Assembly: GCA_964412455.1 (NCBI GenBank)
Contig: CAYPOT010000009.1
Coordinates: forward strand, 5,179-69,178
DNA from: an uncultured Nitrospiraceae bacterium
GTDB taxonomy: Bacteria > Nitrospirota > UBA9217
DNA: 64,000 bases
Direction of reading: 5' to 3'
The notes beneath the pieces are model-generated. The model was given only the letters and a program-made list of their open reading frames with translations, was not told the origin of the DNA and ran no database searches. The translations under genes and the position numbers were made by a program. Shown in pieces: positions 7,057 through 34,049 of this stretch (position 1 is its first letter; every line of letters starts with the position of its first letter).

Positions 7057-7115
7057 CGTTTGGTGTCTCTTACATTGATAAAATGCACCAATGTTGTTTA
7101 AGAGAGATTTCAATT

Positions 7116-8435: not shown

Positions 8436-8451
8436 CCGCACCTTTTAATTT

Positions 8452-9660: not shown

Positions 9661-10766
9661 GGTGTGTCTGCGCTATGGAAAATCACATCGTCATGATGCC
9701 TAATATGATAATACCATATGGCTACGAAATAGTGCCAATTATGGCTTATCCTGCTGGTTTTATCTACAGATTTAGATTTGATGAGGAATGGCTTTCAGAT
9801 AGGATAAAAGCCGATGTGTCTTCATTGTCAGCGAAAAAGGGTTATATCGTTTTCAGAGATCCAGAAAGCGCTACGTTTTACCCCATAAGGCATATCACAA
9901 TCAAGGTGGCGCAAAGAATAGGTAAATACTATTATTTTGAATATGAATTAAATGAAATATTTGACTTTGATTCTAACGAAACATGGAGGACAAAGCAAAT
10001 AACTCAATTTAATGACTCTTTTAAGAGTTTTCATGAATCAGAGTTTAAAGACAACATTCCTGGTAAAGATATGAAGCCCCTCGTATTTTTGACTAATTTT
10101 GCACCAACCATAAATAATGAACATGTCCAATTTACAAATCCATTGGAAAATGAGTTGGAGCGATGGGGAAATATAATTTCAATTATTAAAAATATAAAGT
10201 TTTATGAAAACGTAGAATTTATAAAAATCCTTGATATAGTGCCAATGAAAAAGCGAGACGAGGAAGTGCAAGTTAAAGAGAATTATTTATTTGTACAAGA
10301 AGACGGCGATTATAAGTTGAGGATATTTCAGCTTAAGCCTAAAGGATCGGTAGAAAGGATCGAACCGAAAGATATTGAAGTAAGATCAGACGACAAATAT
10401 ATTAGCGTCATAAGAAATAAACAACGCGCAGTAGGGAAGTATGATGTGCTAAGTTTCGTTTTCCGCGTGCATGCCGGCAGTGGAGGCCAGAGAAGTTATT
10501 TAGATGTTCTACATGCTCCCAAAACAGAAGCAGCCCAGTACATTGCGCCGACACTGTATCTTCCAGTAGCTATTCAAGGAAAAAGAAAGCTAATGGTTAT
10601 AAGAATTTTATTTGCCTTTGTCTTAGTCTCATTCTATCTTTTTCCTGAGGCTATAAGTTTCATATCTGATCACAGGATTGTGAAGGATTTTGCTATGGTC
10701 CTCTTCACTATTTCTGTGATAGATATTCTGAAAGAAATACGGGACCTGTTTAAGGCGAATAGATAA
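9657..10766 (+). CDS. Hypothetical protein with soluble N-domain and two C-terminal transmembrane helices
   Basis: No recognisable motif. C-terminus LMVIRILFAFVLVSFYLFPEAI...VKDFAMVLFTISVIDIL is strongly hydrophobic. Start overlaps the MTase stop (ATGA) and its stop overlaps the next start. Confidence 0.45.
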   Translation: MRCVCAMENHIVMMPNMIIPYGYEIVPIMAYPAGFIYRFRFDEEWLSDRIKADVSSLSAKKGYIVFRDPESATFYPIRHITIKVAQRIGKYYYFEYELNEIFDFDSNETWRTKQITQFNDSFKSFHESEFKDNIPGKDMKPLVFLTNFAPTINNEHVQFTNPLENELERWGNIISIIKNIKFYENVEFIKILDIVPMKKRDEEVQVKENYLFVQEDGDYKLRIFQLKPKGSVERIEPKDIEVRSDDKYISVIRNKQRAVGKYDVLSFVFRVHAGSGGQRSYLDVLHAPKTEAAQYIAPTLYLPVAIQGKRKLMVIRILFAFVLVSFYLFPEAISFISDHRIVKDFAMVLFTISVIDILKEIRDLFKANR

Positions 10767-12907
10767 TGGTTATCGTTGGCCTAAACCTTGGTTCAACAGA
10801 ATTTAATAAGAAATTACACGACGGAGGCATCTGTATTGTTGTTGATGGTAAAGTAAAATTCGCAGTGGCTGAAGAGCGTATTTCGCGCAGAAAGCGCTCA
10901 GGCGGATTCAGGGAATCACTGGACTATGCTCTTTCTTGTTTGAATTTAGATAGGAGTAATATCGATCTTGTTGTTTATTCAAGCTGTTGTGAGAGTATTA
11001 ACAATAGCATTAACATCGCAGAATTACAGAATATAAAATCAATTCCCTGTGACCATCATCTATCTCACGCTTTAAGTGTGTATCTGACATCTCCTTATGA
11101 AAAGGCACTTATTGCCGTTTTAGACGCAGGAGGAAATCTTCTCGGTAATGACAACCATAGTGACTGGTGGCTTCATTCCCGAGAGCAGCAATCATACTAT
11201 GTCGCAGAAGGGAACAATGTCACGCTAATTGATAGAGATTTTATCTTACCTGAAGCAGCAGGCATAGGGGAAATATATCGTGCCTTTACATATTATCTTG
11301 GGTGGGAATCTTCTCGATTTGCAGGCAAGACCATGGCGCTTGCCGCATATGGAGATCCTGGTGCATTTAAAGGTAACAACATATTTGACTTGGACATAAA
11401 TGGGAACATACGCTCACATATAAAAAATAATCCGATAGAGCCCTTGTCTATGGTTGAGCAGTTACTCGATAGATATGGGAGAAAAAATGTGCCTCCTCGG
11501 AAAGATGGTCAACCGATTCTACAAGTGCATAGTGATCTTGCTCGCTGGATACAAAATGAAACGGAGGACATAGTAACCGCAAAACTTAACTATTTAATGC
11601 GTAAGACAGGCATTTCTAATCTTTGTTTGGCAGGAGGAGTTGCCTATAATTGCTCGATGGTTGGAAAGATAATGAATAATACTATGGCAAATAATGTTTT
11701 TCTCCAGCCGGCATCGGGTGATCAAGGTCAATGTCTTGGCAATGCCATGTTTGGATACACTCAAATTAGAAATGCTTGGATAAGAGTTAATCCATTCAAT
11801 CCATATCTAGGATGCGGTATTGAAATAAACCATGATACAATTCGAGGCGCGTTAAAGAGTAATAATCAGGTTACAATTAATGCCCCGCGTGATATAGCAG
11901 TAACAACTGCAAAATTACTCTCGCAAGGAGAAATAGTGGCGTGGTTCCAAGATCGGAGTGAATTCGGTCCTCGTGCCTTGGGCAATCGAAGTATTCTTGC
12001 AAACCCCTGTCTTTCGAAGAGTAAGGAGAAATTGAATTCAATAAAGGGTCGTGAAGACTTTATGCCTTTTGCTCCGACTGTTCTATACGAAAGTGCAAAA
12101 GACTATTTTGTGATTTCCGATGAATGTCCTTTTATGACTGCAGCAGTTAAGGTGCGCCCAAACGTCAGAGAAACAATACCGGCAGCTGTCCATGTGGACG
12201 GAACATCTAGAGTCCAAACATTGAGAAAAGAAAATAATCCGCTATTTTACGATTTGATACATGAATTCTACAAGTTGACAAAAGTGCCATTAATTATTAA
12301 TACTTCATTCAATGCAGCTGGTGAGCCTATTGTTGAAACACTTAATAATGCAATAGACACTTTTATGAAATTAGACATAAGATTTATGGTAGCTGGTTCG
12401 TTCCTTCTGGAAAAGCCATTGGTTAGAACATCTATGCCTAGTGTCAAAGATGCAGGTCGGTTGTTGGATATTGTATTTGGGGCGGATCTGATCGTCAACG
12501 AGACGGAATTAAGTGCGCTGCTTAGTGAGCGCTTTCCGGGAATTAAATCCTTTCCTAGAGATAAATTTTTGCTCAATGAAAAATTTATTAATTGGTTAAA
12601 AAACGGCAGAAAAACGACAACCATTAGGTATAAGAAAGTGGGTATAGATTTCCCAGTGGCGACATGTTTGCCGCTAATTCCGACAAAAGATTTTTCAAAA
12701 AATCGAGGTGAAGCGCCAGTTGGCTTTTTGAAAATAAGAAAATATATAATAAAAAAATATCGGGATCTTAATGAAACAGATGCTCGTAATGATGGATTTA
12801 AAACTCTAACGGAGCTAAGAAGTGTTCTTTTCGATATCTATGGTGCTATACAAGAAGATGACTATGTTTCTATATACTATGTTCAAATAAAAAATAATCC
12901 AAGTTAA
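10766..12907 (+). CDS. NodU/CmcH-type carbamoyltransferase (Kae1/YgjD-like N-domain + carbamoyltransferase C-domain) with ~170-aa C-terminal extension, possibly ASCH/PUA-like
   Basis: MVIVGLNLGST...DGGICIVVDGKVKFAVAEERISRRKR...CDHHLSHALSVY (Carbam_trans_N) and RSILANPCLSKSKEKLNSIKGREDFMPFAPTV (Carbam_trans_C). Tail INWLKNGRKTTTIRYKKV is a weak ASCH-like motif. Confidence 0.6.
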   Translation: MVIVGLNLGSTEFNKKLHDGGICIVVDGKVKFAVAEERISRRKRSGGFRESLDYALSCLNLDRSNIDLVVYSSCCESINNSINIAELQNIKSIPCDHHLSHALSVYLTSPYEKALIAVLDAGGNLLGNDNHSDWWLHSREQQSYYVAEGNNVTLIDRDFILPEAAGIGEIYRAFTYYLGWESSRFAGKTMALAAYGDPGAFKGNNIFDLDINGNIRSHIKNNPIEPLSMVEQLLDRYGRKNVPPRKDGQPILQVHSDLARWIQNETEDIVTAKLNYLMRKTGISNLCLAGGVAYNCSMVGKIMNNTMANNVFLQPASGDQGQCLGNAMFGYTQIRNAWIRVNPFNPYLGCGIEINHDTIRGALKSNNQVTINAPRDIAVTTAKLLSQGEIVAWFQDRSEFGPRALGNRSILANPCLSKSKEKLNSIKGREDFMPFAPTVLYESAKDYFVISDECPFMTAAVKVRPNVRETIPAAVHVDGTSRVQTLRKENNPLFYDLIHEFYKLTKVPLIINTSFNAAGEPIVETLNNAIDTFMKLDIRFMVAGSFLLEKPLVRTSMPSVKDAGRLLDIVFGADLIVNETELSALLSERFPGIKSFPRDKFLLNEKFINWLKNGRKTTTIRYKKVGIDFPVATCLPLIPTKDFSKNRGEAPVGFLKIRKYIIKKYRDLNETDARNDGFKTLTELRSVLFDIYGAIQEDDYVSIYYVQIKNNPS

Positions 12908-12939
12908 TTAGTTGCTCTGCTAAACGACAAAACACAAAA

Positions 12940-13782
12940 ATGACGCAATTTTTGAAAGACTTGCTGCGAAACTATGGGCTCTTGTACATAACGCTTACGC
13001 AGCTTTTGAGTGAGCGACCAGGAAACAAGTATGCTTCGCTGGACGAGTACTATCACAGTCTGGGCATGCAGACGCCTGATAACCCAATGTTTTACGTGCA
13101 TCCGAGCTCGGATGGCAAAACGCGCTACTTAGACGAGGGAGAGCACGATATTGAAGCGCGTGATGATGCGGGTAACAAGGTTGGAAAAGTAGTTGGCGTT
13201 TTGGAACTTCCGGAAGACGAATTCTATTTTTTTCAAGCATTCCGTCCTGGCATGTTCGATTTAGAAAAGGATCTTCCTTCATTTCTTTTTGAAATGGCAT
13301 TAATTTATGCTAATTCTCTATTTGAAAATTACATATCTAGCATTATTCGTCTCAGGTTTCAAAAACACCCAGAACTGATGGGTGTCAATAAACAAGTGAC
13401 TTATGGTCAAGTAATTAAGAGCAATTCGAAACAAGATGTCATCGAGCACCTGATTAATCGAGAAGTCCAACAATTGATGTATGAGCCTATCGGTGCAGTA
13501 TTGGAACGAATGCGAGCAAAATACGGATTTCGAGATCTAACCACGAAGTACGACGAGGAAATAATTTATCTGTCACTTATAAGAAATTGCGTTATGCATA
13601 ATTCTCGGAAGGTTGATTCTAAGCTTGCCACCAATAAACCTAAGCTAGTATTAGGCGAAAGATTGCCTGTTGAAAAGAGTCTCGTGGACACAGCAATTCA
13701 TACTTACCGAAAATTTTGCTATGAAGTTGATATCATGTTAGAAGCTATTGGATCACTCAAACAAACAAGTGAGCCTCTATGA
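12940..13782 (+). CDS. Hypothetical protein with HEPN-like Rx4H motif (LIRNCVMHNSRK)
   Basis: 280 aa, last gene of the AT-rich operon. R-x4-H near the C-terminal third is compatible with a HEPN RNase motif. No other recognisable features. Confidence 0.35.
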   Translation: MTQFLKDLLRNYGLLYITLTQLLSERPGNKYASLDEYYHSLGMQTPDNPMFYVHPSSDGKTRYLDEGEHDIEARDDAGNKVGKVVGVLELPEDEFYFFQAFRPGMFDLEKDLPSFLFEMALIYANSLFENYISSIIRLRFQKHPELMGVNKQVTYGQVIKSNSKQDVIEHLINREVQQLMYEPIGAVLERMRAKYGFRDLTTKYDEEIIYLSLIRNCVMHNSRKVDSKLATNKPKLVLGERLPVEKSLVDTAIHTYRKFCYEVDIMLEAIGSLKQTSEPL

Positions 13783-23483: not shown

Positions 23484-24272
23484 ATGAGTGTGTCCAGTAA
23501 AATAGGGCTCCGGATCAAAGAGCTGCGGGAAAAGGCCGATATGAGCCAGGAGTCATTGGCGCAGAAGATGAAGATGTCCCGCCCTGCCATAACGCAGATC
23601 GAGAAAGGTACGAGAAAGGTCTCTGCCGAAGAACTGGTGAACTTTTCGCAAATGTTCCACGTACCTGTTGATGGCATTTTGAATCAGGGAAAAGAGCCGG
23701 AAGTCTTTCTTCAGGAGGAAAGGGCTGCAAAGGCGGCCAAGCCGCAGATGCGTATCAGCGTTCCGCAGAAGAACCTTCAAAAGTTCAAGGAGGTGCTGTT
23801 GTACATCCTGAACAAGGTGGGCGCAAAGGAGAACATCGGCGAGACCGTCGTCTACAAGCTGCTCTACTTCATAGATTTCGATTTCTACGAGAAATATGAG
23901 GACCAGCTGGTCGGCGCCACGTACATCAAGAACAAATATGGTCCTACACCGGTCGAGTTTGCTAAGATCGTCGAGAAGATGATCAAGGACGGTGAGATCG
24001 AGAAGGTCAAGAGCGAATACTTCAAGCTCCAGCAGACCAAGTACCTGCCCCGCCGGAAGCCGGACCTCACGAAGCTCCAGGCGACCGAGATCGAGGTGAT
24101 CGACGACGTGCTGAACCGGCTCTCGGAAATGAACGCCAACCAGATCAGCGCGTACTCGCACAGCGATGTTCCCTGGATGTCGACGAAGGACGGCGAAACC
24201 ATCGATTACGAATCGGTCTTTTACCGCACGCCGCCCTATTCCGTGCGGGCCTACACGGATGAGAACGGATGA
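23484..24272 (+). CDS. XRE-family HTH fused to Panacea (DUF4065) domain antitoxin
   Basis: N-terminal HTH_XRE (IKELREKADMSQESLAQKMKMSRPAITQIEKG). C-terminal KLLYFIDFDFYEKYEDQLVGATYIKNKYGPTPVEF matches the Panacea/SocA-like signature. Confidence 0.65.
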   Translation: MSVSSKIGLRIKELREKADMSQESLAQKMKMSRPAITQIEKGTRKVSAEELVNFSQMFHVPVDGILNQGKEPEVFLQEERAAKAAKPQMRISVPQKNLQKFKEVLLYILNKVGAKENIGETVVYKLLYFIDFDFYEKYEDQLVGATYIKNKYGPTPVEFAKIVEKMIKDGEIEKVKSEYFKLQQTKYLPRRKPDLTKLQATEIEVIDDVLNRLSEMNANQISAYSHSDVPWMSTKDGETIDYESVFYRTPPYSVRAYTDENG

Positions 24273-24784
24273 GCCGATCGTTCTACAGTGAATTCGACGG
24301 GACGCTGTTTGAAAAGATCACTCATGTCCCGGAGTTCGAGAAAGATCTAAAAAAGCTCTCCAAGCGATTCTCTTCGCTCGAAAAGGACCTGCAGACCTTC
24401 ATCAAGGTCGCGATGCATCTATTTCACAAGCAGAAGATCGACAGCAATGCGATCTTTCATATATCCGATCTCGGGATCAAGTCTCCGAATATATACAAGG
24501 CCAAGAAGTTTGCGTGCCGGGCGTTGAAGGGCAAAGGAGCGCAATCGGGAATCAGGGTTATTTATGCATATCATGAGGAAGCGGATTGGGTAGAGTTTGT
24601 CGAGATTTATTATAAGGGCGATAAGGAGAGCGAGGGCAGGGAGAGGATAGCTCGAATATATGGTAAACCTCGACAGGTAGGCGGACCGCTTGCGAGCCGC
24701 AAGGCCTTGAGAGAATCGCTCCGCGCCAAAGGAAAAGCGCCGTCCGAAGTCGTGATCGCATCGAGAAAACAGGAGAGGGATTAG
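24269..24784 (+). CDS. RelE/ParE-superfamily-like toxin partner (4-bp ATGA overlap with antitoxin)
   Basis: ...ACRALKGKGAQSGIRVIYAYHEEADWVEFVEIYYKGDKE resembles the RelE/HigB core (sGiRviY...v.fl.i..K.d); basic tail. Confidence 0.45.
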   Translation: MSRSFYSEFDGTLFEKITHVPEFEKDLKKLSKRFSSLEKDLQTFIKVAMHLFHKQKIDSNAIFHISDLGIKSPNIYKAKKFACRALKGKGAQSGIRVIYAYHEEADWVEFVEIYYKGDKESEGRERIARIYGKPRQVGGPLASRKALRESLRAKGKAPSEVVIASRKQERD

Positions 24785-25276: not shown

Positions 25277-25487
25277 CCTATCCATTTCTCAGTCTGTTTA
25301 ATTAGGTTTTCGAAAGAATGCGTATATCCAAGTAATGACATGGCAAACCAAGCGAAAAAGACAGAGCACTCAGGATCGAAGAAAGGTTGCGGCTCATACT
25401 GGGGACGAAAGAAGGACGCAAAGACAGAAAGCAACCGCAAGCGCCGCGAAGACGGCAAGAGATTGATTCGAGAGACAGCGAGAGTAT

Positions 25488-25751
25488 ATGAACCGAAGAA
25501 ATAAATCCAGACCACAACGCACCGCTGATGCTCTTTGCCAGAAACACAAGGTCAGCGTCACGGGGAAATCCCATGACGTTGTACTCCATGCCGATACAGA
25601 AGACGGCGGCTTCTGGGTCGAGTGCCCCTCGCTTCCCGGCTGCGACTCGCAGGGCGACGCGGTAGAGGATGCGCTAAAGATGGTGAAGGACGCCATCAAG
25701 GGACATCTGGAGGTCGCGGCAGAGCGGAAGAAGAAGAGGGCGGCCGCGTAA
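25488..25751 (+). CDS. HicB-like (UPF0150) antitoxin-domain protein
   Basis: VVLHADTEDGGFWVECPSLPGCDSQGDAVEDALKMVKDAIKGHLE matches the HicB N-domain consensus. Its stop directly abuts the DUF3800 start (TAAATG). Confidence 0.6.
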   Translation: MNRRNKSRPQRTADALCQKHKVSVTGKSHDVVLHADTEDGGFWVECPSLPGCDSQGDAVEDALKMVKDAIKGHLEVAAERKKKRAAA

Positions 25752-26387
25752 ATGCCCTATATTTTCATGGACGAGTCAGGCGACCTTGGATTTGATTTCA
25801 CCAAGAAAGGGACTTCGCAATATTTTCTGATTACGTTCCTGTTCAGCAACAATAAGAGGGACATTGACAAATGCGTCAAAAAGGTCCATGCGGGCTTGCG
25901 CAAACGGTATAAGAGAGTTGGCGTACTGCATGCATATAAGGATGAACCGGTAACCAAAAAGCGATTACTTTCGCTACTTGCGGAGAAGGATTGCACTATC
26001 ATGGCAATCGTGCTGAACAAGAGAAAGGTCTACACAAACCTTCAGGATGAGAAGCCGGTCCTTTACAATTACGTGACCAATATCTTGCTCGACAGGATAT
26101 TCTCAAAAAAACTGCTGCGCGGCAACGAACCAATCGAGATCATCGCCTCGCGTAAGGACACGAGCAGGTTCCTGAATTTGAACTTCAAATCCTACCTGCA
26201 GTCGCAATTGGCCAAGAATCACAATGTGACGGTAAGCGTTACGATCAAGACCCCGGCGGAAGAGAAAGCACTTCAGGCGGTGGATTTCGTGAGCTGGGCG
26301 ATATTCAGGAAGTATGAGTCGAAGGACGAAGAGTACTACAGGATCATCAAAGGGCTGATCGTCGAAGAGAAACCGTTGTTCCCCTAG
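25752..26387 (+). CDS. DUF3800-domain protein
   Basis: MPYIFMDESGDLGFDF... is the characteristic DUF3800 N-terminus (iy.DESG). Confidence 0.6.
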   Translation: MPYIFMDESGDLGFDFTKKGTSQYFLITFLFSNNKRDIDKCVKKVHAGLRKRYKRVGVLHAYKDEPVTKKRLLSLLAEKDCTIMAIVLNKRKVYTNLQDEKPVLYNYVTNILLDRIFSKKLLRGNEPIEIIASRKDTSRFLNLNFKSYLQSQLAKNHNVTVSVTIKTPAEEKALQAVDFVSWAIFRKYESKDEEYYRIIKGLIVEEKPLFP

Positions 26388-26484
26388 AAACAACAAAGCC
26401 CCGTTCGCTAGTTTCGAGGCGCCCTGCGGTACCCCACGAACGAGGACTTACTTGTTGCTATTATGATAATGCAGGGGCGGAAGT

Positions 26485-26692
26485 ATGTCAAGGGTTTTGA
26501 GCAGTTTAATTCTCGGTCCGAGTGCAGCATAAAGGCTGGCGCGGCAGTCATGTGAAGCTGATGAAACCGGGTAATCCCGTCATTTTGTCGATCCCCCTGC
26601 ACAAGGGGAAACCGGTCAAGAAAGGCTTGCTGGTTGCTCAGGTCAAGAAGGCGGGGATGACGGTGGAGGAGTTCTTAAAATTGTACAAATAA
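26485..26692 (+). pseudogene. Degenerate HicA-like toxin (frameshifted, with internal stops)
   Basis: Frame 1 MSRVLSSLILGPSAA* (stop 26530). Frame 2 continues ...GWRGSHVKLMKPGNPVILSIPLHKGKPVKKGLLVAQVKKAGMTVEEFLKLYK*, the HicA GSH..KL...P.H.GK...GtL..I.KqAG signature, with TGA/TAA just upstream in that frame. Confidence 0.55.
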
Positions 26693-26734
26693 GCAATATG
26701 GTATCCAGTAAGATGTTGAAAATGAGTAGGCAAT

Positions 26735-27682
26735 TTGTTGATGACAGTTGGATTCTTACGAGCGAATGAAAATATGCCGATAGTAACTGATTCTAGACTG
26801 AACTCTGAAGCAGATATTAAATTCGAGACGTATCGCGGTTACCTCGATGCTGTCAGAAGGCACATATATCAAACATACGGATCTTGGAAGCACTTCGGAC
26901 GGACCTGCATTGATCAAACGCTACATATGCAAGGGATAGGTGTCTTTGATCAACCCTGGGTAGAACGGTTTCTCAAAATAGCATGGAATACTGAATTCAT
27001 TTTGTCTGACGGAGCCAAAGATGTAGAATTGGTCCGCATCAATAATCAGTGGTCACCGATTCAGGCGTATTATGCAATATATGCATGCGGGGAAGCCTTG
27101 GCCTATGTTCTTGACGGAAATAAAGCAGACGGCCATCAGAAAACTCTAACGAAGCTGACAGATTATTTTGAAAAAAACAGTCTCTCACCATGGAATCTAT
27201 CCTACGAGGGGCCACGAGGAAGGACTTGCCAGGACCACAAGCCTCATAATTTTTCTGCTGACATAAGAATACCGCATAACTTGCAGAGAAGCGACGTGAC
27301 ACCGCAGGAGTTGATTGCAAAGTGCCTTAAGGCAGAGCATGCCAACCGTGTTGATGATACATGGCAAAAAAGAAGGTGTCAGTTCAAATACAACTTCGAC
27401 CCGGGTCGGACCAGCCTATTGCACTTCATGTATAGACTCCGGATCAAATCCAACTACAAAGAGATTGATCTTTTCGTATCGCAGGCCCCGGCAGCTAAGA
27501 TCCTCAATTTCAACACATCTTTACAGTATATTTGTTTTTATACGCTTCTGTATATGGAGGTCGCGCTGGCCAGAAAATGTAAAAAGAGTTTTCTTCTTGC
27601 TCTGGGGGATAAGTATTTGACTGTGAATCCAAGAGCGCATAAATTAAAGCGTCGACTGGAATTCTATAATTCCCAGATATAA
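26735..27682 (+). CDS. Hypothetical protein (315 aa), accessory region
   Basis: No confident motif. Lower GC than the core. Immediately upstream of the nuclease-helicase gene. Confidence 0.4.
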   Translation: MLMTVGFLRANENMPIVTDSRLNSEADIKFETYRGYLDAVRRHIYQTYGSWKHFGRTCIDQTLHMQGIGVFDQPWVERFLKIAWNTEFILSDGAKDVELVRINNQWSPIQAYYAIYACGEALAYVLDGNKADGHQKTLTKLTDYFEKNSLSPWNLSYEGPRGRTCQDHKPHNFSADIRIPHNLQRSDVTPQELIAKCLKAEHANRVDDTWQKRRCQFKYNFDPGRTSLLHFMYRLRIKSNYKEIDLFVSQAPAAKILNFNTSLQYICFYTLLYMEVALARKCKKSFLLALGDKYLTVNPRAHKLKRRLEFYNSQI

Positions 27683-27722
27683 ATCTACCCGAGGTCAACG
27701 TCCTTCAAAGAGCACATTAACC

Positions 27723-30569
27723 ATGTCAAAGATGGACATCGCACGGAGCATTTCCGCATGTAACTGCTGGCAGGACTTCAAAGAAGCAATGCAGCCCTTG
27801 TCGAAGAAGGAAAAGGGTGACTGCTTTGAAGAACTGACCAAACAGTATTTGCTTATCGAGCCGAAGTATCAGACCCAGTTGCGTCACGTTTGGCGGCTCG
27901 AAGAAGTACCATCGAAGACCAGAAAGCATCTCAATCTCCCCGATTTAGATGAAGGGACCGACCTTGTAGCAGAAACAGTAGATGGAGGTTATTGGGCGAT
28001 CCAATCCAAGTATCGTGAAGACGAAACAACCTCCCTCACTCGCCGCGAACTCAGCACATTCACCGACCTGGCTTTCTCCATCTGTAAGAACATCGAACTT
28101 GGCCTGATATGTACCACCGCGGACCGCTTCAGCCACAAGCTGCGGCTTCATGGAGAGCGGCTCTCCTTCTGTGCCGGCGATGTCTGGTCAGCTCTTGATA
28201 AAGAGTTTTTCGGTCGTCTGCACGCTGTCCTTAAAGGCAGGGAAGTAAAGCTACGCCCCAAACATCCACGGGACCATCAAAAAAGCGCCATTCAGAACGC
28301 CTTTGATCATTTCATCCAGAATGGCAATGACCGCGGCAAGCTGATCATGCCATGCGGAACTGGGAAAAGTCTGGCCGCATACTGGATAGCCGAAAAACTG
28401 AACGCCCATTCGATCCTCATTGCGGTCCCGAGCCTTTCCCTTATCAAACAGACTCTGGAGGTCTGGGCGCGGGAATCGGTTGCTAATGGTCGGGCCATTC
28501 ACTGGATGGCTGTCTGCAGCGATGAAACCGTCGCGAAAAGCGAGAAAAAGGATATTGCAGTGCTGACCCAGGATCTTGGCGTCCTTGTGCATACAGACCC
28601 GGTGGAGATAGCCGACTGGCTCAGGAAAAAGGAGAAGGGAACGACGGTCGTATTCAGCACGTACCAAAGCGGAAAGGCCATAGCCGAAGCGGCCAAGATA
28701 GCGAAAGTCACCTTTGACATCGCGATCCTCGATGAAGCGCATAAAACAGTAGGCAAAAAGCAGGGATTGTTCAGTTATCTTCTGCATGATGAGAATATCC
28801 CGATCCGGAAGCGGATATTCATGACTGCGACTGAAAGGCGCTACCGGGGGCAGAGCGACGACATTGTCAGTATGGATGACATATCCCTGTACGGAGAGAC
28901 CTTTGAGCTGCTGAGTTTTAAGAGAGCGCTCGAATACAAAGAACCTATCCTGAGCGATTATAAGATCGTGACCGTAGCCGTTTCGCGACAAGAGATAGCC
29001 GACATGGTTAAGCGCAATGTCTTCGTAAGGCCGGACAAGGGTGAATGGGACGAGGATGTTGAAGCGGAATCGCTTGCGGCTCTGGTTGCCCTGCGAAAGG
29101 CCATGAACTCATATCCCATCCGTCACGCAATCTCCTACCACAGCAGTATTGCCCGCGCAAAGATGTTTAAAACAAATCAAGAGCAGTTCTCAGATACATT
29201 TTCTGAATATAACCGTATAAACACCTACCATGTTTCCGGAAAAACGCCCACTGCAGTCCGTGCCCGAGAGATCAGAGATTTTGCAAGCGCAGACCGCGCA
29301 CTTATAACGAATGCTCGTTGTATGGTCGAGGGAGTGGATATTCCTAATGTTGACTGTGTTCTTTTTGCCGATCCGAAGAACAGTATAGTGGATATTGTGC
29401 AAGCGGTTGGGCGTGCATTGAGACCGGCAATAGGAAAAGACTATGGCTATGTGATTGTTCCTGTCCTTCTGGAAAGAAACGACGGTACGGATGTATCAAT
29501 GCCCCAGAGCGCATACGCTACGATCATCACAGTCCTGCGAGCGCTGGCCGAGAATGACGAGAGGATTATAGAATATTTCAGAGGGATTTCGCAGGGAGCA
29601 CGGCGCGAGGGCAAGGAAAATGTATTTGAGATCAACATTCCAGAAAGTTTGCATATCAACCTGCCGGATTTCGTCCAATCTGTAGAACTTCAAGTCTGGT
29701 CTCGCATTGCACGTCTGGCATGGCGGCCGTTTGAAGAGGCCCGCGCTTTCGCCCGGTCGTTGGCACTAAGAAACCAAGATGATTGGAAATCCTATTATAA
29801 AGGCTACTTGTCACGCATGTATAAAAAGCCAGTGGATATTCCTGCAGCTCCCAATGAAGTGTATAAGTACAATGGCTGGAAGAGTTGGGTAGACTGGTTA
29901 TGGATAGAAGGCCTCGCGCCAAGTGATTATGCATGGCGGTCGTTTGAAGATGCCCGTGCTTTTGTACATTCATTGGGGCTCAGAGGTATAAATGACTGGA
30001 GGCTTTATTGTACGGATAAGCTGCCAGATAAAGGTAGTAAACCAGCGGACATACACGCAGACCCATATAAAGTATATAAAGACAAGGGCTGGAAGAATTG
30101 GGGGGATTGGCTAGGGCTTGGCGCGGGAACTATTGAACCCAGAAAACAATTATATCGGTCGTTTGAAGAAGCTCGTTCTTTTGTGCGATCGTTGGGGCTC
30201 TCTGGCCAAACGGAATGGACTCTCTACTGTAAAGGTCAATTGCCCGGCAGGGATAAGAAGCCGGATGATATACACTCTAATCCCTATAATACTTATAATA
30301 ACATATGCTGGAAGAGCTGGGATGACTGGCTTGGAACGGAAACCATAGCACCACAAAATCGAGTATTTCGGCTTTTTGAGGAAGCCCGCACTTTTGCGCG
30401 TTCGTTGGGGCTTCCAAGCGAAAAAGAATGGCGTCTCTACTGTAAGGGTGAGTTACCTGGTAAGGGAAAGAAACCTGATGACATACCGTCTGCTCCATGG
30501 TTAACTTATAAGGACGATGGCTGGAAGAGTTGGGGTGACTGGCTTGGAACTAGACGCGTTAAGAAGTAA
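27723..30569 (+). CDS. Mrr-like restriction endonuclease domain + SF2 (DEAH) helicase + four C-terminal ~70-aa tandem repeats
   Basis: DLVAETVDGGYWAIQSKY (Mrr_cat-like PD-(D/E)xK), Walker A MPCGTGKSLAAYW, DEAHK. C-terminal repeats share the pattern RSFEEARAFVRSLGL..EW.LYCKG.LPGK.KKPDDIPS.PY..YKD.GWKSWGDWLG. Confidence 0.65.
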   Translation: MSKMDIARSISACNCWQDFKEAMQPLSKKEKGDCFEELTKQYLLIEPKYQTQLRHVWRLEEVPSKTRKHLNLPDLDEGTDLVAETVDGGYWAIQSKYREDETTSLTRRELSTFTDLAFSICKNIELGLICTTADRFSHKLRLHGERLSFCAGDVWSALDKEFFGRLHAVLKGREVKLRPKHPRDHQKSAIQNAFDHFIQNGNDRGKLIMPCGTGKSLAAYWIAEKLNAHSILIAVPSLSLIKQTLEVWARESVANGRAIHWMAVCSDETVAKSEKKDIAVLTQDLGVLVHTDPVEIADWLRKKEKGTTVVFSTYQSGKAIAEAAKIAKVTFDIAILDEAHKTVGKKQGLFSYLLHDENIPIRKRIFMTATERRYRGQSDDIVSMDDISLYGETFELLSFKRALEYKEPILSDYKIVTVAVSRQEIADMVKRNVFVRPDKGEWDEDVEAESLAALVALRKAMNSYPIRHAISYHSSIARAKMFKTNQEQFSDTFSEYNRINTYHVSGKTPTAVRAREIRDFASADRALITNARCMVEGVDIPNVDCVLFADPKNSIVDIVQAVGRALRPAIGKDYGYVIVPVLLERNDGTDVSMPQSAYATIITVLRALAENDERIIEYFRGISQGARREGKENVFEINIPESLHINLPDFVQSVELQVWSRIARLAWRPFEEARAFARSLALRNQDDWKSYYKGYLSRMYKKPVDIPAAPNEVYKYNGWKSWVDWLWIEGLAPSDYAWRSFEDARAFVHSLGLRGINDWRLYCTDKLPDKGSKPADIHADPYKVYKDKGWKNWGDWLGLGAGTIEPRKQLYRSFEEARSFVRSLGLSGQTEWTLYCKGQLPGRDKKPDDIHSNPYNTYNNICWKSWDDWLGTETIAPQNRVFRLFEEARTFARSLGLPSEKEWRLYCKGELPGKGKKPDDIPSAPWLTYKDDGWKSWGDWLGTRRVKK

Positions 30570-30607
30570 TAGTAATATCAATAGACGAAAGGTTAAACAG
30601 ATACGAA

Positions 30608-31408
30608 ATGAAAATCGAAGGTAATGGGTTTTTGACCACTCTTTTGCCAGACATATCGCAGACGGTTCCCGGCGTCAATAAGGCTTTATTTTGCTTACTG
30701 CAAGATGTCATCAATTATGCAGAGAGCCTAAAAGAATCATTGCAGGTCGCCAAACAGGAAACAGATCAAGAAAAGCAGAAAATTATCGCGACAGTTACTT
30801 ACATTCGACTTTTAGAAGTCGTTGAAGCGGCGTTCATCCTTTCCGCTTATGGAATTAGAGAAGAGTTGCAGTCGCTATTTCGCATATTCTTAGACGCTTA
30901 TTTTGTGCATGCCAACTGCTGTAGCAGCCCAGAATTTATCCCTGCCTATATTCTTAGTGACGAACAGTCACGTCTTAAAATGCTTAATGTGGCGACGAAG
31001 TATGATAGCGAGATGTTCAAAGCGACAAAAGAATATGCAACAGCCGAATTGAAAAACCAACTTGAAAACAAGATACGCGAGGAAAAAATTGAAGCATTCA
31101 ACTCGTACCTCTATGCGAAAAATGTTAATTGCGAACAAATATACGATTCTCTATACAGGCTGATGAGCGCCTCAGTGCATACAACTCCCAGATGTTTAAG
31201 CAATTATATAGAAACTGACGAACATGGGGTCATATTGCAAGTCTTGCATGGCTCTAGGCCGGAAGACACCAACCACGCATTGTTTGATATGTCGTGGTTT
31301 TTCTTAAAGGCTATACGCGGGATCTGTGAATTGTTCCAGCTCCCCATGGGGACGTTAGATTGTTTTGACAAACGGATAAAGGAATATGAAACCGAAAGAA
31401 AAGATTGA
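30608..31408 (+). CDS. Hypothetical protein (266 aa), downstream of the nuclease-helicase
   Basis: 39-nt gap after the helicase stop; no recognisable motif. Confidence 0.4.
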   Translation: MKIEGNGFLTTLLPDISQTVPGVNKALFCLLQDVINYAESLKESLQVAKQETDQEKQKIIATVTYIRLLEVVEAAFILSAYGIREELQSLFRIFLDAYFVHANCCSSPEFIPAYILSDEQSRLKMLNVATKYDSEMFKATKEYATAELKNQLENKIREEKIEAFNSYLYAKNVNCEQIYDSLYRLMSASVHTTPRCLSNYIETDEHGVILQVLHGSRPEDTNHALFDMSWFFLKAIRGICELFQLPMGTLDCFDKRIKEYETERKD

Positions 31409-31578
31409 GAATGAGAGTCGAATATTGAATGTAATTTCGTTCATGGTCAGCCGAAAATTAGGCGCGAACGGATCCTGTATTTATTGATTCATGATGCGGA
31501 CTGAAAGCACTTATACTGAACTAAAAATAAGCGGCAGGCCATCTGGCCTGCCTTTGTCGTCTTCCGCATGCGCATCGC

Positions 31579-31827
31579 TCAATGCACCGAGCACGATATG
31601 CAAAGGTCGTAGGAGCGCACGAGCATCTGGGCGAGGAGCTCGATGTCCCGGTCCTTTTTCCCTTCCCGGGCATACTGCTCGGCAAGCGCCATCAGGTCGT
31701 GCTGAATATTGGCATGGTTCTGGCTCGTGGGGATCACGCAGTCGCTCTTGACGATCCCGCCTTCCTTGTCGAACTCGTAGCAATGATATAAGATCCCCCG
31801 GAGTATGCCTTGATTCTCGTATTGCAA
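31579..31827 (-). pseudogene. Displaced 3' fragment of the [NiFe] hydrogenase large-subunit gene (last ~75 codons plus terminator)
   Basis: Encodes ...GILYHCYEFDKEGGIVKSDCVIPTSQNHANIQHDLMALAEQYAREGKKDRDIELLAQMLVRSYDLCISCSVH, ~90% nt identical to hydA 32775-33000. The direct repeat spans ~31500-31800 vs ~32702-33003. Confidence 0.8.
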
Positions 31828-31943: not shown

Positions 31944-32276
31944 ATGATCAACCGATCAATTCTGGTAGTCAGGGCGAAAGAGCCGTTCGTGCAATGGATC
32001 AACTCCCTTCCCGATCCTGCTGGAGTCTCCCGGAAGCAGGTCGATCTCGATAATACAGCCTATCTTCTGCCGGAATACGCGTATGACGAAGAAAAAGAGG
32101 AGCTTCTCGCTCAGTTCTTCGATCTGATCTTTCAGGAACAATTGAGCGGCTGGTGGACTGATGAGAGTGGCTGGCCGCAGAAGCGGGACATTGCCATGTT
32201 CAACAAGTGGTTCGAAGTAGATTTTCATTCGGCAGTGCTCGATCTTGTTGATACGCCGCTGGAAGAGGACGAATAG
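31944..32276 (+). CDS. Hypothetical acidic protein (110 aa) within the hydA-3' duplicated insert
   Basis: No recognised motif. Paired with the downstream wHTH gene. Confidence 0.4.
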   Translation: MINRSILVVRAKEPFVQWINSLPDPAGVSRKQVDLDNTAYLLPEYAYDEEKEELLAQFFDLIFQEQLSGWWTDESGWPQKRDIAMFNKWFEVDFHSAVLDLVDTPLEEDE

Positions 32277-32315
32277 CGGTTAGTCAGTCCCGCTTGCTAC
32301 TGAGAGAGGTGAGTT

Positions 32316-32690
32316 ATGAAAGTGAAAAAGATCAACATAGGCATCAAAGATCTAGCGGAAAGCTTGAAGGATTTTGCCGCGACGTGGAAAAAGTCGGAAT
32401 CCGGCAAGAAGACGAGGAAAGAGGAGGGCATTTACTTTGACTCCATCGATTCGATGCGGTCTGTGTTGACGAACAACCGGCTGCTTATCCTGAAAACGAT
32501 CCGGGACCGCAATCCGGGCTCCGTCTACGAGTTGGCAAAAATACTGGAACGGGACCTAAAAAACGTTAACCAGGACCTGAAGCTCCTAGCCGACATCGGC
32601 CTGGTTACTCTGGTGAAGACGGACGCCGATAAGAAGCGTGTTGTGCCCCATGTTGATTACGGTAAGATCATGCTTGAAATACCGGTGTAA
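32316..32690 (+). CDS. Winged-helix DNA-binding protein (MarR/ArsR-like)
   Basis: NRLLILKTIRDRNPGSVYELAKILERDLKNVNQDLKLLADIGLV wHTH. Confidence 0.45.
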   Translation: MKVKKINIGIKDLAESLKDFAATWKKSESGKKTRKEEGIYFDSIDSMRSVLTNNRLLILKTIRDRNPGSVYELAKILERDLKNVNQDLKLLADIGLVTLVKTDADKKRVVPHVDYGKIMLEIPV

Positions 32691-32774: not shown

Positions 32775-34049
32775 TCAATGCACAGAACATGATATGCAGG
32801 GGTCGTAGGACCTGACAAGCATCTGGGCGAGGAGTTCGATGTCCCTGTCCTTCTTGCCTTCCCGGGCATACTGCTCCGCCAGCGCCATCAGATCGTGCTG
32901 GATGTTGGCGTGGTTCTGGCTCGTGGGGATCACGCAGTCGCTTTTGACGATCCTGCCTTCCTTGTCGAACTCGTAGTAATGATATAAGATGCCCCGCGGT
33001 ACTTCTACCGCTCCGACGCCGATCCCTTCCCGCGGCACCACCTTCTGTCGTGGCTCCTGCCATGCCCCATCCAACATTCCGTTGATCAGGTCGATCGAGT
33101 CCATCACCACATGCACGCATTCCACTAACTGGGCGACATTGTTCATGAAGGGATTGTGGTTCACCGGCTTGAGCCCGAAGCTTAGGGAGAGCTCTTTCGC
33201 GGCAGGATGCAGGAAGGCGAAGTTGTTGTTCAGGCGGGCGAGCGCGCCGACTGCCAGCGACGACCGCGAGAGCTTGCTCCACTTGGACGTGGACTGTCCG
33301 ACCATATACTCGTTCGTCATCAACCGGTACTCGTGCTCTTTCCTGACCACGCCGTCCGTCGAGACCAGGTCTCCGCCGATGAAAGGATAACTCCCCTTGC
33401 CCTTGAGCGAAACGAATTCGGTCTCCCGCTTGAAGTCAGGAACAACAAATTGCCGGAACAGGTCCGCGGTGAGGGTGAGGTCATCCACGACATCCTGCAG
33501 GCGGTACTTGAACTTCACCAGTTCATTTTTTTCCGGCAGCATGGTGAACCCGCCGATCACGGTCCGCGTGGGATGCATCCTCCGGCCGCCGACGCAGTCG
33601 CACATATCGTTCGCGAGCAGCTTGATCTTGGCCGCGCGTTTTATTACATCGGGATGGGAATCGATGAGCGGGAACACGCTTCCGACGTTCAGGAAGTCCG
33701 GGGCAGCCAGGAAATACAGGTGCAGGATATGGCTCTGGAGCGTTTCCATGTGCTTCAGCAGGAGCCGCAGTTTCCCCGTTTGCTCCGTGGGAACGATGCC
33801 GAAGGCGTTCTCGACCGCCCGGATGCTGGCCAGCGTATGGCCGATGGAGCAGATGCCGCAGATCCTGCCGCAGATCCAGGGAGCGTTCTCCCATTTCTTC
33901 CCGACCAGCATCGCCTCGAAGAAGCGCGGCGTCTCCACGACCTCCCAGGTCGCGTCTTCGACCTTTCCGTCTTTGATGGAGATCTTGATGTTGCCGTGGC
34001 CTTCCACCCGGGTGAGGTGGCGTATGTCGATGGACTGCGATAGCTTCAT
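32775..34049 (-). CDS. hydA: [NiFe] hydrogenase large (alpha) subunit, group 3-type (sulfhydrogenase/Mvh-like)
   Basis: N-terminal RICGICSIGH and C-terminal DPCISCSVH Ni-binding cysteine pairs. Cys, not Sec, is used. Confidence 0.85.
   Translation of the reverse strand: MKLSQSIDIRHLTRVEGHGNIKISIKDGKVEDATWEVVETPRFFEAMLVGKKWENAPWICGRICGICSIGHTLASIRAVENAFGIVPTEQTGKLRLLLKHMETLQSHILHLYFLAAPDFLNVGSVFPLIDSHPDVIKRAAKIKLLANDMCDCVGGRRMHPTRTVIGGFTMLPEKNELVKFKYRLQDVVDDLTLTADLFRQFVVPDFKRETEFVSLKGKGSYPFIGGDLVSTDGVVRKEHEYRLMTNEYMVGQSTSKWSKLSRSSLAVGALARLNNNFAFLHPAAKELSLSFGLKPVNHNPFMNNVAQLVECVHVVMDSIDLINGMLDGAWQEPRQKVVPREGIGVGAVEVPRGILYHYYEFDKEGRIVKSDCVIPTSQNHANIQHDLMALAEQYAREGKKDRDIELLAQMLVRSYDPCISCSVH

Follow-up and report, generated by a model that had tools for sequence, protein, structure and literature searches.

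An Mrr nuclease-SF2 motor protein related to Type ISP restriction enzymes carries an INT_rpt array in a mosaic island of an uncultured Nitrospiraceae bacterium

The 948-aa protein encoded within the window (the whole 64,000-nucleotide stretch of DNA analysed, from an uncultured Nitrospiraceae bacterium) combines an Mrr-family nuclease, an SF2 motor and a C-terminal array of INT_rpt repeats, and is, on sequence grounds, a member of a large, unstudied, stand-alone gene family. It is probably, though far from securely, a single-polypeptide ATP-dependent nuclease-translocase that acts alone and derives from that half of a Type ISP enzyme which holds the nuclease and the motor, with the coupler, methyltransferase and target-recognition half replaced by the repeat array. 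A restriction-like or antiphage role appears reasonable for such a protein.

The original prediction described three consecutive open reading frames, and all three are present on the plus strand at the positions given in Table 1, separated by intergenic gaps of 40 bp and 38 bp. The longest is 100% identical to the 945-aa database protein P0001, which begins at Met4, an alternative start of this frame. The proposed fusion of a nuclease and a helicase with a repeat tail is borne out by Pfam for the two enzymatic parts (Mrr_cat_2, E 2e-14; ResIII/DEAD at residues 181-370, E 1e-16; Helicase_C at residues 480-567, E 2.5e-12) and by a repeat HMM for the tail. The quoted nuclease motif, DLVAETVDGGYWAIQSKY, was found at residues 80-97 of the translation, and the helicase motifs MPCGTGKS and DEAHK at residues 209-216 and 337-341, respectively. 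Within the nuclease, motif I (F35-E36) lies just upstream of the Mrr_cat_2 span and is nearly invariant among 20 homologues, in which every named residue of motif II (D76-x-G78-x-D80) and motif III (Q94-x-K96) is invariant. The motor contains Walker A (PCGTGKS, 210-216), motif II (DEAH, 337-340), motif III (TAT, 368-370), the motif V arginine (R532) and motif VI (QAVGRALR, 560-567), and these residues are invariant across the aligned homologues.

Table 1. Features of the 948-aa gene and its surroundings, in window positions
Feature	Positions	Strand	Basis
948-aa Mrr nuclease / SF2 motor / INT_rpt-array gene	27723-30569	+	ORF, Pfam domains
Mrr-family PD-(D/E)xK nuclease domain, aa 45-140	27855-28142	+	Pfam Mrr_cat_2
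SF2 helicase-like ATPase motor, aa 181-567	28263-29423	+	Pfam ResIII, DEAD, Helicase_C; LlaBIII alignment
Linker of ~50 aa between motor and repeats, aa 617-666	29571-29720	+	LlaBIII alignment stops at query residue 616
INT_rpt repeat 1, aa 667-737	29721-29933	+	Repeat alignment, HMMs
INT_rpt repeat 2, aa 738-810 (2-aa insertion)	29934-30152	+	Repeat alignment, HMMs
INT_rpt repeat 3, aa 811-881	30153-30365	+	Repeat alignment, HMMs, AlphaFold2
INT_rpt repeat 4, aa 882-948	30366-30566	+	Repeat alignment, HMM, AlphaFold2
315-aa ORF, HEPN-fold, small unannotated family	26735-27682	+	Fold match
266-aa DUF5677 protein	30608-31408	+	Pfam PF18928, E 3e-20
Conserved 217-bp junction	25310-25525	+	blastn, 91% to L001 9589-9805
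Insertion of ~2.2 kb relative to closest relative	25526-27711	+	blastn, Pfam
GC-rich hairpin, T tracts on both sides	31533-31552	.	Consensus scan

The closest characterised relatives of the enzymatic part are the Type ISP enzymes. Residues 28-616 align to residues 30-649 of LlaBIII (4xqk; phmmer E 2e-65), and the homology to LlaGI (5ffj; E 8e-54) is likewise confined to nuclease and motor. As in LlaGI and LlaBIII, a single polypeptide begins with an Mrr-family nuclease that shares their D-x-G-x-D and Q-x-K motifs and continues into an SF2 motor, at ~33% identity over ~600 residues. Furthermore, the nuclease motif matches the residues by which the LlaGI nuclease pattern was defined and mutated (E38, D74, D78, Q92 and K94; PMC2790908). 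The differences all lie beyond the motor. Homology ends at LlaBIII residue 649 and is followed by a 50-aa linker, which is conserved with the homologue P0003, in the position where Type ISP enzymes carry their coupler domain; a Pfam search of approximately residues 593-667 gave no match, and the coupler is missing. Also missing from the polypeptide are the N6-adenine methyltransferase, with no methyltransferase family of Pfam, NCBIfam or PADLOC found in it, and the target-recognition domain, the C-terminus being filled instead by the INT_rpt array. The 120 closest homologues and the 80 helicase loci that we retrieved all have a Type ISP nuclease-motor without a methylase, and no methylase occurs among the recurrent neighbours in those loci. 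With neither a methyltransferase domain nor a conserved methylase neighbour, the host-protection logic of a restriction-modification enzyme is missing.

Comparison with PADLOC-DB v2.0.0, proposed as a check on the predicted antiphage function, did not assign the protein to a known system: it returned no system-specific full-length match, only the N-terminal half of REase_MTase_IIG/I and weak matches to the helicase core. The best of these, to the Type IIG REase-MTase model, extends over positions 15-643 out of 1646. SauUSI is a single-chain nuclease-helicase-reader enzyme of Type IV, and the SauUSI-type Type IV enzymes, ZorD, Hachiman HamAB, PbeA and Cas3 resemble the present protein in their nuclease plus SF2 ATPase logic, their C-terminal recognition part and their lack of a methylase; however, homology to this set is limited to the generic helicase core. 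The mREase_IV match is weak (E 1e-6, ~80 residues), those to PbeA and Cas3 cover the helicase core only, and the ZorD and HamB models gave no match at E 0.01 or better. Literature searches on INT_rpt/PF14882, Mrr_cat_2, and Type ISP enzymes and defence yielded neither a description of the architecture nor an experiment on a member of the family.

The distribution of the family is not that of a housekeeping repair helicase with a conserved chromosomal context, the assignment that would have spoken against the original prediction. Confirmed relatives were found by exact-pattern scan in 353 of 185,579 species genomes, scattered patchily over many phyla and mainly in Verrucomicrobiota (including Akkermansia), Lentisphaerota, Planctomycetota, Bacteroidota and Campylobacterota, which are poorly studied, and each neighbour family is confined to at most 6 of the 80 helicase loci. 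Likewise, the NCBIfam models for RadD, XPB, RecQ and UvrB all score far under their cutoffs, the best being RadD with 40.5 bits against a cutoff of 720. The neighbours that do occur include SoFic, PDC-S04/S24, BrxL, DpdE, ZorD, PIN, integrases and IS200; some 15-20 of 135 immediate neighbours match PADLOC models, a link to defence islands that is a small, unnormalised count.

The four C-terminal repeats described in the original prediction are real, with 45-58% pairwise identity and 24 invariant columns, and measure 67-73 aa in this protein against a strict period of 71 aa in the family. They are conserved at the protein level only and are too diverged as DNA, Tandem Repeats Finder having found none in the corresponding nucleotides. 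Repeat 1 is the most divergent copy, with V, W and I in place of the conserved G57, G61 and T62, and repeat 4 forms the C-terminal end of the protein, as it does in homologues. An HMM built from the four repeats recovered 1026 repeats in 121 proteins. The family name that the original prediction had withheld came by way of the homologues, whose repeats match Pfam INT_rpt (PF14882), also PHINT_rpt or 'Integrase repeat unit', a model that represents 55 positions of the 71-aa unit. The homologues P0003 (80% identical; 49.8 bits) and P0004 (102.7 bits) exceed the INT_rpt cutoff of 26.5, and the window protein and its own repeats give no match to the Pfam model even at E 10. Since the homologues pass Pfam and a family HMM from which the window protein had been left out gives each window repeat 84-105 bits, values inside the range of the family, we place the window repeats in INT_rpt by transitive homology; they are 43-62% identical to the INT_rpt repeats of the homologues.

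An earlier contact-based structure model of INT_rpt was poor (PMC8078820), and a sequence search of solved structures with our repeat profile returned nothing significant. AlphaFold2 predicts repeats 3-4 (pLDDT 88) to be independent, small four-helix units with lower-confidence linkers between them. Arrays of INT_rpt are present in 6986 cluster representatives recovered by profile search, and outside the present family their fusion partners are Integrase_2, GIY-YIG, DUF723 zinc fingers, and other ResIII/SNF2 helicases that come with a methyltransferase. All identifiable catalytic partners act on DNA, and the helicase, integrase and GIY-YIG nuclease fusions suggest that the array serves in DNA anchoring.

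These features enabled us to propose a mechanism in which the INT_rpt array would hold the enzyme on DNA, the SF2 motor would hydrolyse ATP and translocate on double-stranded DNA as in LlaGI and LlaBIII, and the Mrr-type nuclease would nick or cut the DNA when translocation stalls or when two enzymes collide. Translocation is expected because of the extent of identity to LlaBIII and because all motor motifs are intact, and nuclease activity because the catalytic residues are intact. As there is no cognate methylase, discrimination between self and non-self would have to come from what the repeat array recognises, which could be DNA modification, the ends of DNA or some other property of incoming DNA, and this would make the enzyme a Type IV-like or methylase-independent restriction system. 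A translocating nuclease without a methylase should endanger its host, which counts against our explanation. The protein might instead act outside immunity, in recombination, repair, or integration and excision, whether for the host or for a mobile element, using its array as the INT_rpt-bearing integrases do. The lack of a methylase to protect the host is in keeping with such a role. Moreover, the name INT_rpt comes from integrases, P0263 carries the repeat fused to Integrase_2, a tyrosine integrase is encoded no more than 8 kb from the gene in 5 of the 80 loci, and a few relatives are on contigs classed as viral. Nevertheless, we think this role unlikely, as the kin of the nuclease-motor are specifically restriction enzymes and not repair helicases, most loci have no integrase, and both the patchy distribution and the variable context speak against it. 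Moreover, no full-length family protein was found on 72,556 plasmids, which contain Type ISP-like cores only, and the repeat region is matched in just 3 of 50,697 phage genomes, all three of them jumbo phages.

Another difficulty for a stand-alone nuclease-translocase concerns the window copy itself. Arrays contain 4-14 copies among the 120 closest homologues, with a median of 8 over the 121 proteins, and have a mean net charge of +4.8 per repeat and ~+41 per array; the window array has the fewest copies of the 121 proteins (4) and is only weakly basic (+10). In addition, of the 21 most conserved positions, 3 are substituted in repeat 1 and likewise 3 in repeat 3, compared with a family mean of 0.8. 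So short and weakly basic an array, with substituted repeats, means that the window copy may be weakened, and this may count against our explanation. Taken further, the same observations would make the gene a non-functional, decaying remnant with a truncated array. This we consider very unlikely, as the open reading frame is unbroken and encodes every catalytic motif, every repeat still scores inside the family range, and the core shows strong purifying selection when compared with that of the closest relative (L001; 91% identical core, dN 0.046, dS 0.55, dN/dS ~0.08). The repeats of this relative are only 54% identical to those of the window (pS 0.70) and have no positional orthology with them; set against the conserved core, this indicates that the array has been swapped or shuffled in the manner of specificity modules.

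Comparison with the same relative, which occupies the same slot between apt and the NiFe-hydrogenase operon, also clarifies the genomic setting. The gene lies, as predicted, in an accessory stretch of lower GC content (44-52% between 26 and 32 kb, against ~58-63% in the flanks), which is part of a mosaic island without a detectable tRNA gene to mark it. Its description as packed with toxin-antitoxin modules was roughly right, in that Pfam identifies an HTH-SocA/Panacea antitoxin, a HicB-like protein and several HTH proteins; PADLOC returned only generic HTH matches for the other genes of the island and none for either flanking ORF. In the closest relative the helicase gene has a Peptidase_M78 gene on its upstream side and is followed by an unrelated 306-aa ORF, and the 217-bp junction, which may be a promoter or leader region, directly precedes the helicase gene. 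In the window this junction is separated from the helicase gene by the 2.2-kb insertion, which contains most of the HicB-like gene (25488-25751, its start lying inside the conserved junction), a DUF3800 gene (25752-26387) and the 315-aa ORF, and homology resumes at window position 27712, which matches L001 from 9837 onward by blastn.

These comparisons bear directly on the suggestion that the helicase gene and its two neighbours constitute one three-gene defence module. The genes lie on one strand with short gaps, and a consensus scan detected no terminator-like site between them; the hairpin that follows the third gene is the sole plus-strand terminator-like site downstream of the three, although the total number of such sites, like the result of the promoter scan, is not above shuffled expectation. 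Co-transcription in this genome may therefore occur. The arrangement also seems to recur on an independent 5.4-kb assembly, as P0001 and P0121, the latter identical to the product of the 315-aa ORF, are each encoded on a single 5398-bp contig, presumably the same one. However, tblastn detected a homologue of the 315-aa ORF or of the DUF5677 gene in none of the 80 helicase loci, which have no conserved neighbour family, and in 11 contexts of the 315-aa family neither an INT_rpt helicase nor a DUF5677 gene lies close by. Given, too, that the 315-aa ORF arrived with the insertion and that the closest relative has different genes on both sides in the same slot, a three-gene module is highly improbable and appears to be largely refuted by comparative genomics already. 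The 266-aa ORF had been called unknown, but Pfam identifies DUF5677 at residues 59-206 (73.5 bits against a cutoff of 27.1); a sequence search of this domain against solved structures gave nothing significant. Its gene fills the slot of the unrelated 306-aa ORF of the closest relative and is, judging from that replacement and from its absence from the helicase loci, independent cargo. The nuclease-motor gene is accessory cargo in a mosaic island, beside two genes that are not its partners but cargo in their own right.

The 315-aa ORF, which probably starts at Met14 (26774) to give the 302 aa of P0121, defines an unannotated family whose predicted fold matches several HEPN domains and HEPN toxins, with the HEPN four-helix fold. 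There was no sequence match to the HEPN families of Pfam or NCBIfam, and the family profile found nothing significant in a sequence search of solved structures. At ~300 aa its members have double the length of one HEPN domain. In place of the canonical Rx4-6H the family has the conserved motif YRLRIKSNY (Y-R221-L-R223-I-K-S-N227-Y228), in which no histidine stands at the expected spacing and an invariant tyrosine or asparagine is found there; the invariant H121, E188-H189 and R192 might stand in for the catalytic histidine. The family often occurs in Type I restriction-modification or DISARM-like operons (5 of 11 contexts), a setting reminiscent of PrrC/RloC-type HEPN nucleases, and in L083 and L125 its gene lies 30-35 bp upstream of hsdR, a spacing similar to the 40 bp between the 315-aa ORF and the motor gene downstream of it in the window. 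The other 6 contexts are housekeeping or other settings, including one DUF4143/RT island and one conjugative element. As a candidate shared partner of the family, the ~200-aa neighbour genes were rejected, being unrelated to each other and to the window DUF3800.

The anticodon nuclease PrrC is kept latent by the Type I enzyme EcoprrI. By analogy, the HEPN-fold protein could be a facultatively coupled back-up guard toxin that would fire when a phage inhibits the restriction motor beside it, be this HsdR, a DISARM helicase or, in the window, the Type ISP-like motor, all of them ATP-dependent. Both the restriction-associated contexts and the spacing from hsdR are in keeping with this idea. Nonetheless, it is doubtful, since the canonical motif is replaced by RxRxKSNY, there is no ATPase/NTPase domain as in PrrC, the remaining contexts lie outside such operons, and any physical interaction with the motor is pure speculation. 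A broader proposal joins this guard function to the variability of the arrays: INT_rpt arrays would be exchangeable DNA-recognition cassettes that retarget the nuclease-motor, with repeat number and surface residues setting the DNA engaged, the family would be a widespread and so far unrecognised single-gene defence system, and the HEPN-fold neighbour family would guard restriction motors. Such methylase-free diversification of specificity would be analogous to hsdS/TRD shuffling, built from tandem 71-aa units. We consider this proposal quite unlikely.

Returning to the stand-alone nuclease-translocase that we favour, its interest lies in the separation of two components that usually go together, as a methylase normally makes a Type ISP motor safe and the present family carries the motor without one. 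If its role is in defence, the family would represent a defence system of one gene, with its main occurrence in phyla that have been little studied, and would raise the question of how a translocating nuclease can distinguish self from non-self without methylation. INT_rpt is itself a small helical domain, so far uncharacterised and without a relative of solved structure, and since its identified catalytic partners are DNA enzymes, a function found for it here would annotate many proteins.

The original prediction took a nuclease-helicase protein with four C-terminal tandem repeats, together with its two neighbouring ORFs, for a possible defence module. The three ORFs lie at the predicted coordinates, all on the forward strand with gaps of 40 and 38 bp, in a region of lower GC (44-52%, against about 60% in the flanks), and the 948-aa translation contains the nuclease, Walker A and DEAH strings given in the prediction. 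In a search of PDB sequences, residues 28-616 of this protein align with residues 30-649 of LlaBIII (4xqk; E 2e-65) and LlaGI (5ffj) is also matched (E 8e-54), these being the two Type ISP restriction-modification enzymes with structural characterisation. The top PADLOC match covers positions 15-643 of the 1646-position Type IIG/ISP REase-MTase model. Mutagenesis of LlaGI identified the nuclease residues E38, D74-x-G-x-D78 and Q92-x-K94 (PMC2790908), which correspond to E36, D76-x-G78-x-D80 and Q94-x-K96 in the 948-aa protein; both these residues and the helicase motifs vary little or not at all across 20 homologues. NCBIfam matches to repair helicases fall far under their cutoffs. The homology to LlaBIII and LlaGI, the PADLOC match, the retained catalytic residues and the low repair-helicase scores together identify the core as an intact Type ISP-type nuclease-motor.

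Features of the 948-aa protein, its locus and related loci
Feature	Position	Content	Source
Mrr_cat_2	aa 45-140		Pfam
ResIII/DEAD	aa 181-370		Pfam
Helicase_C	aa 480-567		Pfam
Four repeats	aa 667-737, 738-810, 811-881, 882-948
Second island	window 7083-13782
SocA/Panacea pair	window 23484-24784
Segment compared with HTH-M78 pair	window 25277-25310
HicB-like and DUF3800 genes	window 25488-26387
Insertion relative to closest relative	window 25526-27711	HicB-like gene, DUF3800, 315-aa ORF	blastn
315-aa ORF	window 26735-27682(+)
948-aa protein	window 27723-30569(+)
DUF5677 gene (266-aa ORF)	window 30608-31408(+)
Hydrogenase duplicate	window 31579-31800(-)	ORF 31579-31827
HVO_A0114-type HTH gene	window 31944-32690
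Intact hydrogenase gene	window 32775-34049(-)
SocA/Panacea pair, relative	L001 7228-8438
HTH-M78 pair, relative	L001 8877-9518
306-aa ORF, relative	L001 13607-14527; L002 6416-7336
Viral INT_rpt proteins	L111 3383-7612; L119 3212-7108; L123 3785-8116

In Type ISP enzymes, as described in PMC7049714 and PMC4666363, the domain order is Mrr-family nuclease, SF2 motor, coupler, methyltransferase and target-recognition domain, and the enzymes act by site recognition, translocation of the motor on dsDNA, collision of two enzymes and cutting by the nuclease. In the 948-aa protein, however, the LlaBIII/LlaGI homology ends at residue 616, methyltransferase and target-recognition domains are absent, and an array of INT_rpt repeats stands in their place. 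It is best described as an ATP-dependent restriction enzyme variant, new among such enzymes, in which an exchangeable basic INT_rpt array replaces the methylase-target recognition half.

The four predicted repeats lie back to back and are 45-58% identical pairwise with 24 invariant columns, and Tandem Repeats Finder detected none in the underlying DNA, where the copies are too diverged. Their family, which the original prediction could not name with confidence, can be assigned through homologues, well over threshold, to Pfam INT_rpt (PF14882; 'Integrase repeat unit', formerly PHINT_rpt); the Pfam model gives no match to the window protein itself. Across the window protein and the 120 homologues closest to it, an HMM built from the four repeats counted 1026 units, with a strict period of 71 aa and 4-14 copies per protein (median 8), the window protein lying at the minimum. 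Conserved positions include aromatic, Gly and Pro residues (F4, W22, Y48, G52-W53, G57-D-W-L-G-T62) and basic residues (R2, R8, K17, K27, K33, R70), and a repeat carries on average a net charge of +4.8 and an array +41, the window array reaching only +10. Since the window array is thus exceptionally short and has little basic charge, a homologue with a longer array would be the better experimental subject.

Among 1.84 billion cluster representatives, profile searching returned 6986 proteins with INT_rpt arrays (E <= 1e-3). In the architectures sampled, arrays are fused to other ResIII/SNF2 helicases with a Methyltransf_8 domain (on large viral contigs and in proteins P0275 and P0323), to Integrase_2, GIY-YIG or DUF723 treble-clef fingers, or to nothing, and DNA is the substrate of every identifiable catalytic partner. 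Given these partners and the basic charge, DNA anchoring is the most likely role of the array. Three viral contigs of giant-virus or jumbo-phage size (154-379 kb) encode 1300-1440-aa proteins with N-terminal arrays of 6-9 repeats at a 66-aa period; the two that were scanned, L111 and L119, combine the array with a ResIII/SNF2 helicase and, at the C-terminus, a Methyltransf_8 domain, differing from the 948-aa type in carrying a methyltransferase.

The 948-aa protein has thousands of database relatives, the best 120 of which (945-1656 aa) have the same core and more repeats, and are annotated merely as 'DEAD/DEAH box helicase', 'restriction endonuclease' or 'integrase repeat-containing protein'. 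When a single genome of each species was scanned, relatives were confirmed at 353 sites. The 80 loci retrieved belong to Verrucomicrobiota (including Akkermansia MAGs), Lentisphaerota, Planctomycetota, Bacteroidota, Campylobacterota, Desulfobacterota, Acidobacteriota and Melainabacteria. The proposed three-gene module found no support here: tblastn detected homologues of the 315-aa ORF and DUF5677, as of DUF3800 and other island genes, in none of the 80 loci. Clustering of 912 neighbouring ORFs gave no family in more than six loci, the commonest being SoFic (6), tyrosine integrases (5), ABC transporters (4) and DUF559 (3), with no methylase among the top recurrent families. Immediate neighbours mix housekeeping genes with defence or mobile-element genes (SoFic, PDC-S04, PDC-S24, BrxL, DpdE, ZorD, PIN, IS200). 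Full-length relatives were absent from plasmids (none among 72,556) and occur, at roughly 40% identity, on eight short IMG/VR contigs. An accessory, probably defensive role for the 948-aa gene is plausible. The SoFic-type Fic protein (about 400 aa) adjoins the helicase homologue at L013, L017, L021, L023 and two more loci, all those checked being from Verrucomicrobiota; it is the one neighbour to recur in this position, and could reflect lineage synteny or local association.

The 315-aa ORF (start probably Met14) has no Pfam, NCBIfam or PADLOC match; its family counts 63 database proteins. Its AlphaFold2 model, from 50 homologues, is all-helical (pLDDT 92, pTM 0.91) with a HEPN fold; the family shows no evident canonical Rx4-6H motif, and YRLRIKSNY is conserved instead. 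Three of 11 genomic contexts are Type I R-M operons, two of them with the gene 30-35 bp upstream of hsdR (in one, L125, it also follows a DISARM-type DEAD/MZB helicase); two are DISARM-like loci, one a DUF4143/reverse-transcriptase island, one a conjugative element, and the remainder other or housekeeping settings. Since these contexts are often Type I R-M or DISARM-like, the family is a separate one, probably linked to defence. In the window its member lies just upstream of another restriction-type motor, which hints at a possible guard role like that of PrrC.

According to one preprint (PMC12632615), DUF5677 is enriched near serine-recombinase defence islands and, when tested, was not among the genes protecting against the phage panel used. 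In type VII retrons, DUF3800 is the RNase H2-like accessory (PMC7736814); no reverse transcriptase lies near the window gene. The DUF3800 protein (211 aa) abuts an 87-aa HicB-like antitoxin domain protein, and the 2.2-kb insertion that brought these two genes also brought the HEPN-fold ORF. Further upstream, an HTH-SocA/Panacea antitoxin gene overlaps by 4 bp a 171-aa gene lacking Pfam, NCBIfam or PADLOC matches; the pair looks like a Panacea-type toxin-antitoxin with an unclassified toxin. A second island of much lower GC (35-44%), with all genes on the forward strand, encodes an HD-domain protein, an N6/N4 DNA methylase, a 713-aa carbamoyltransferase-ASCH fusion, and 369-aa and 280-aa ORFs of unknown kind. 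PADLOC matched none of the HD protein, the 369-aa ORF and the fusion, and the island is possibly a cassette for DNA modification or defence.

The closest relative (P0003; 1229 aa, eight repeats), found on two metagenome contigs (L001, L002), occupies the same chromosomal slot, with apt on one side and the NiFe-hydrogenase large-subunit gene on the other, likewise with a SocA/Panacea-HTH gene upstream; in L001 both genes of that pair are about 83% identical to those of the window. Its helicase is flanked by a Peptidase_M78 gene and an unrelated 306-aa ORF. The former belongs to an upstream HTH and Peptidase_M78 (ImmA/IrrE-like) pair, of which the window keeps the HTH (60% identical) and has lost the peptidase gene. 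The 306-aa ORF, unannotated and just downstream of the helicase, has no Pfam match and no similarity to DUF5677 or the 315-aa ORF; by blastn, DUF5677 replaces it in the window. Because the 217 bp directly preceding the relative's helicase match window 25310-25525, the segment that follows is an insertion. Downstream, a 222-bp duplicate of the 3' end of the hydrogenase large-subunit gene is 89% identical to the relative's gene, and a 110-aa ORF and an HVO_A0114-type HTH gene lie between it and the intact copy, an arrangement resembling the insertion of a small cassette that duplicated the end of the gene.

The two helicase cores are 91% identical (dN 0.046, dS 0.55), whereas the repeat regions are about 54% identical (pS 0.70, dN 0.35) and their repeats lack positional correspondence. 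By this far greater divergence, the array has a history different from that of the core, and array recombination or replacement is the pattern expected for a specificity module.
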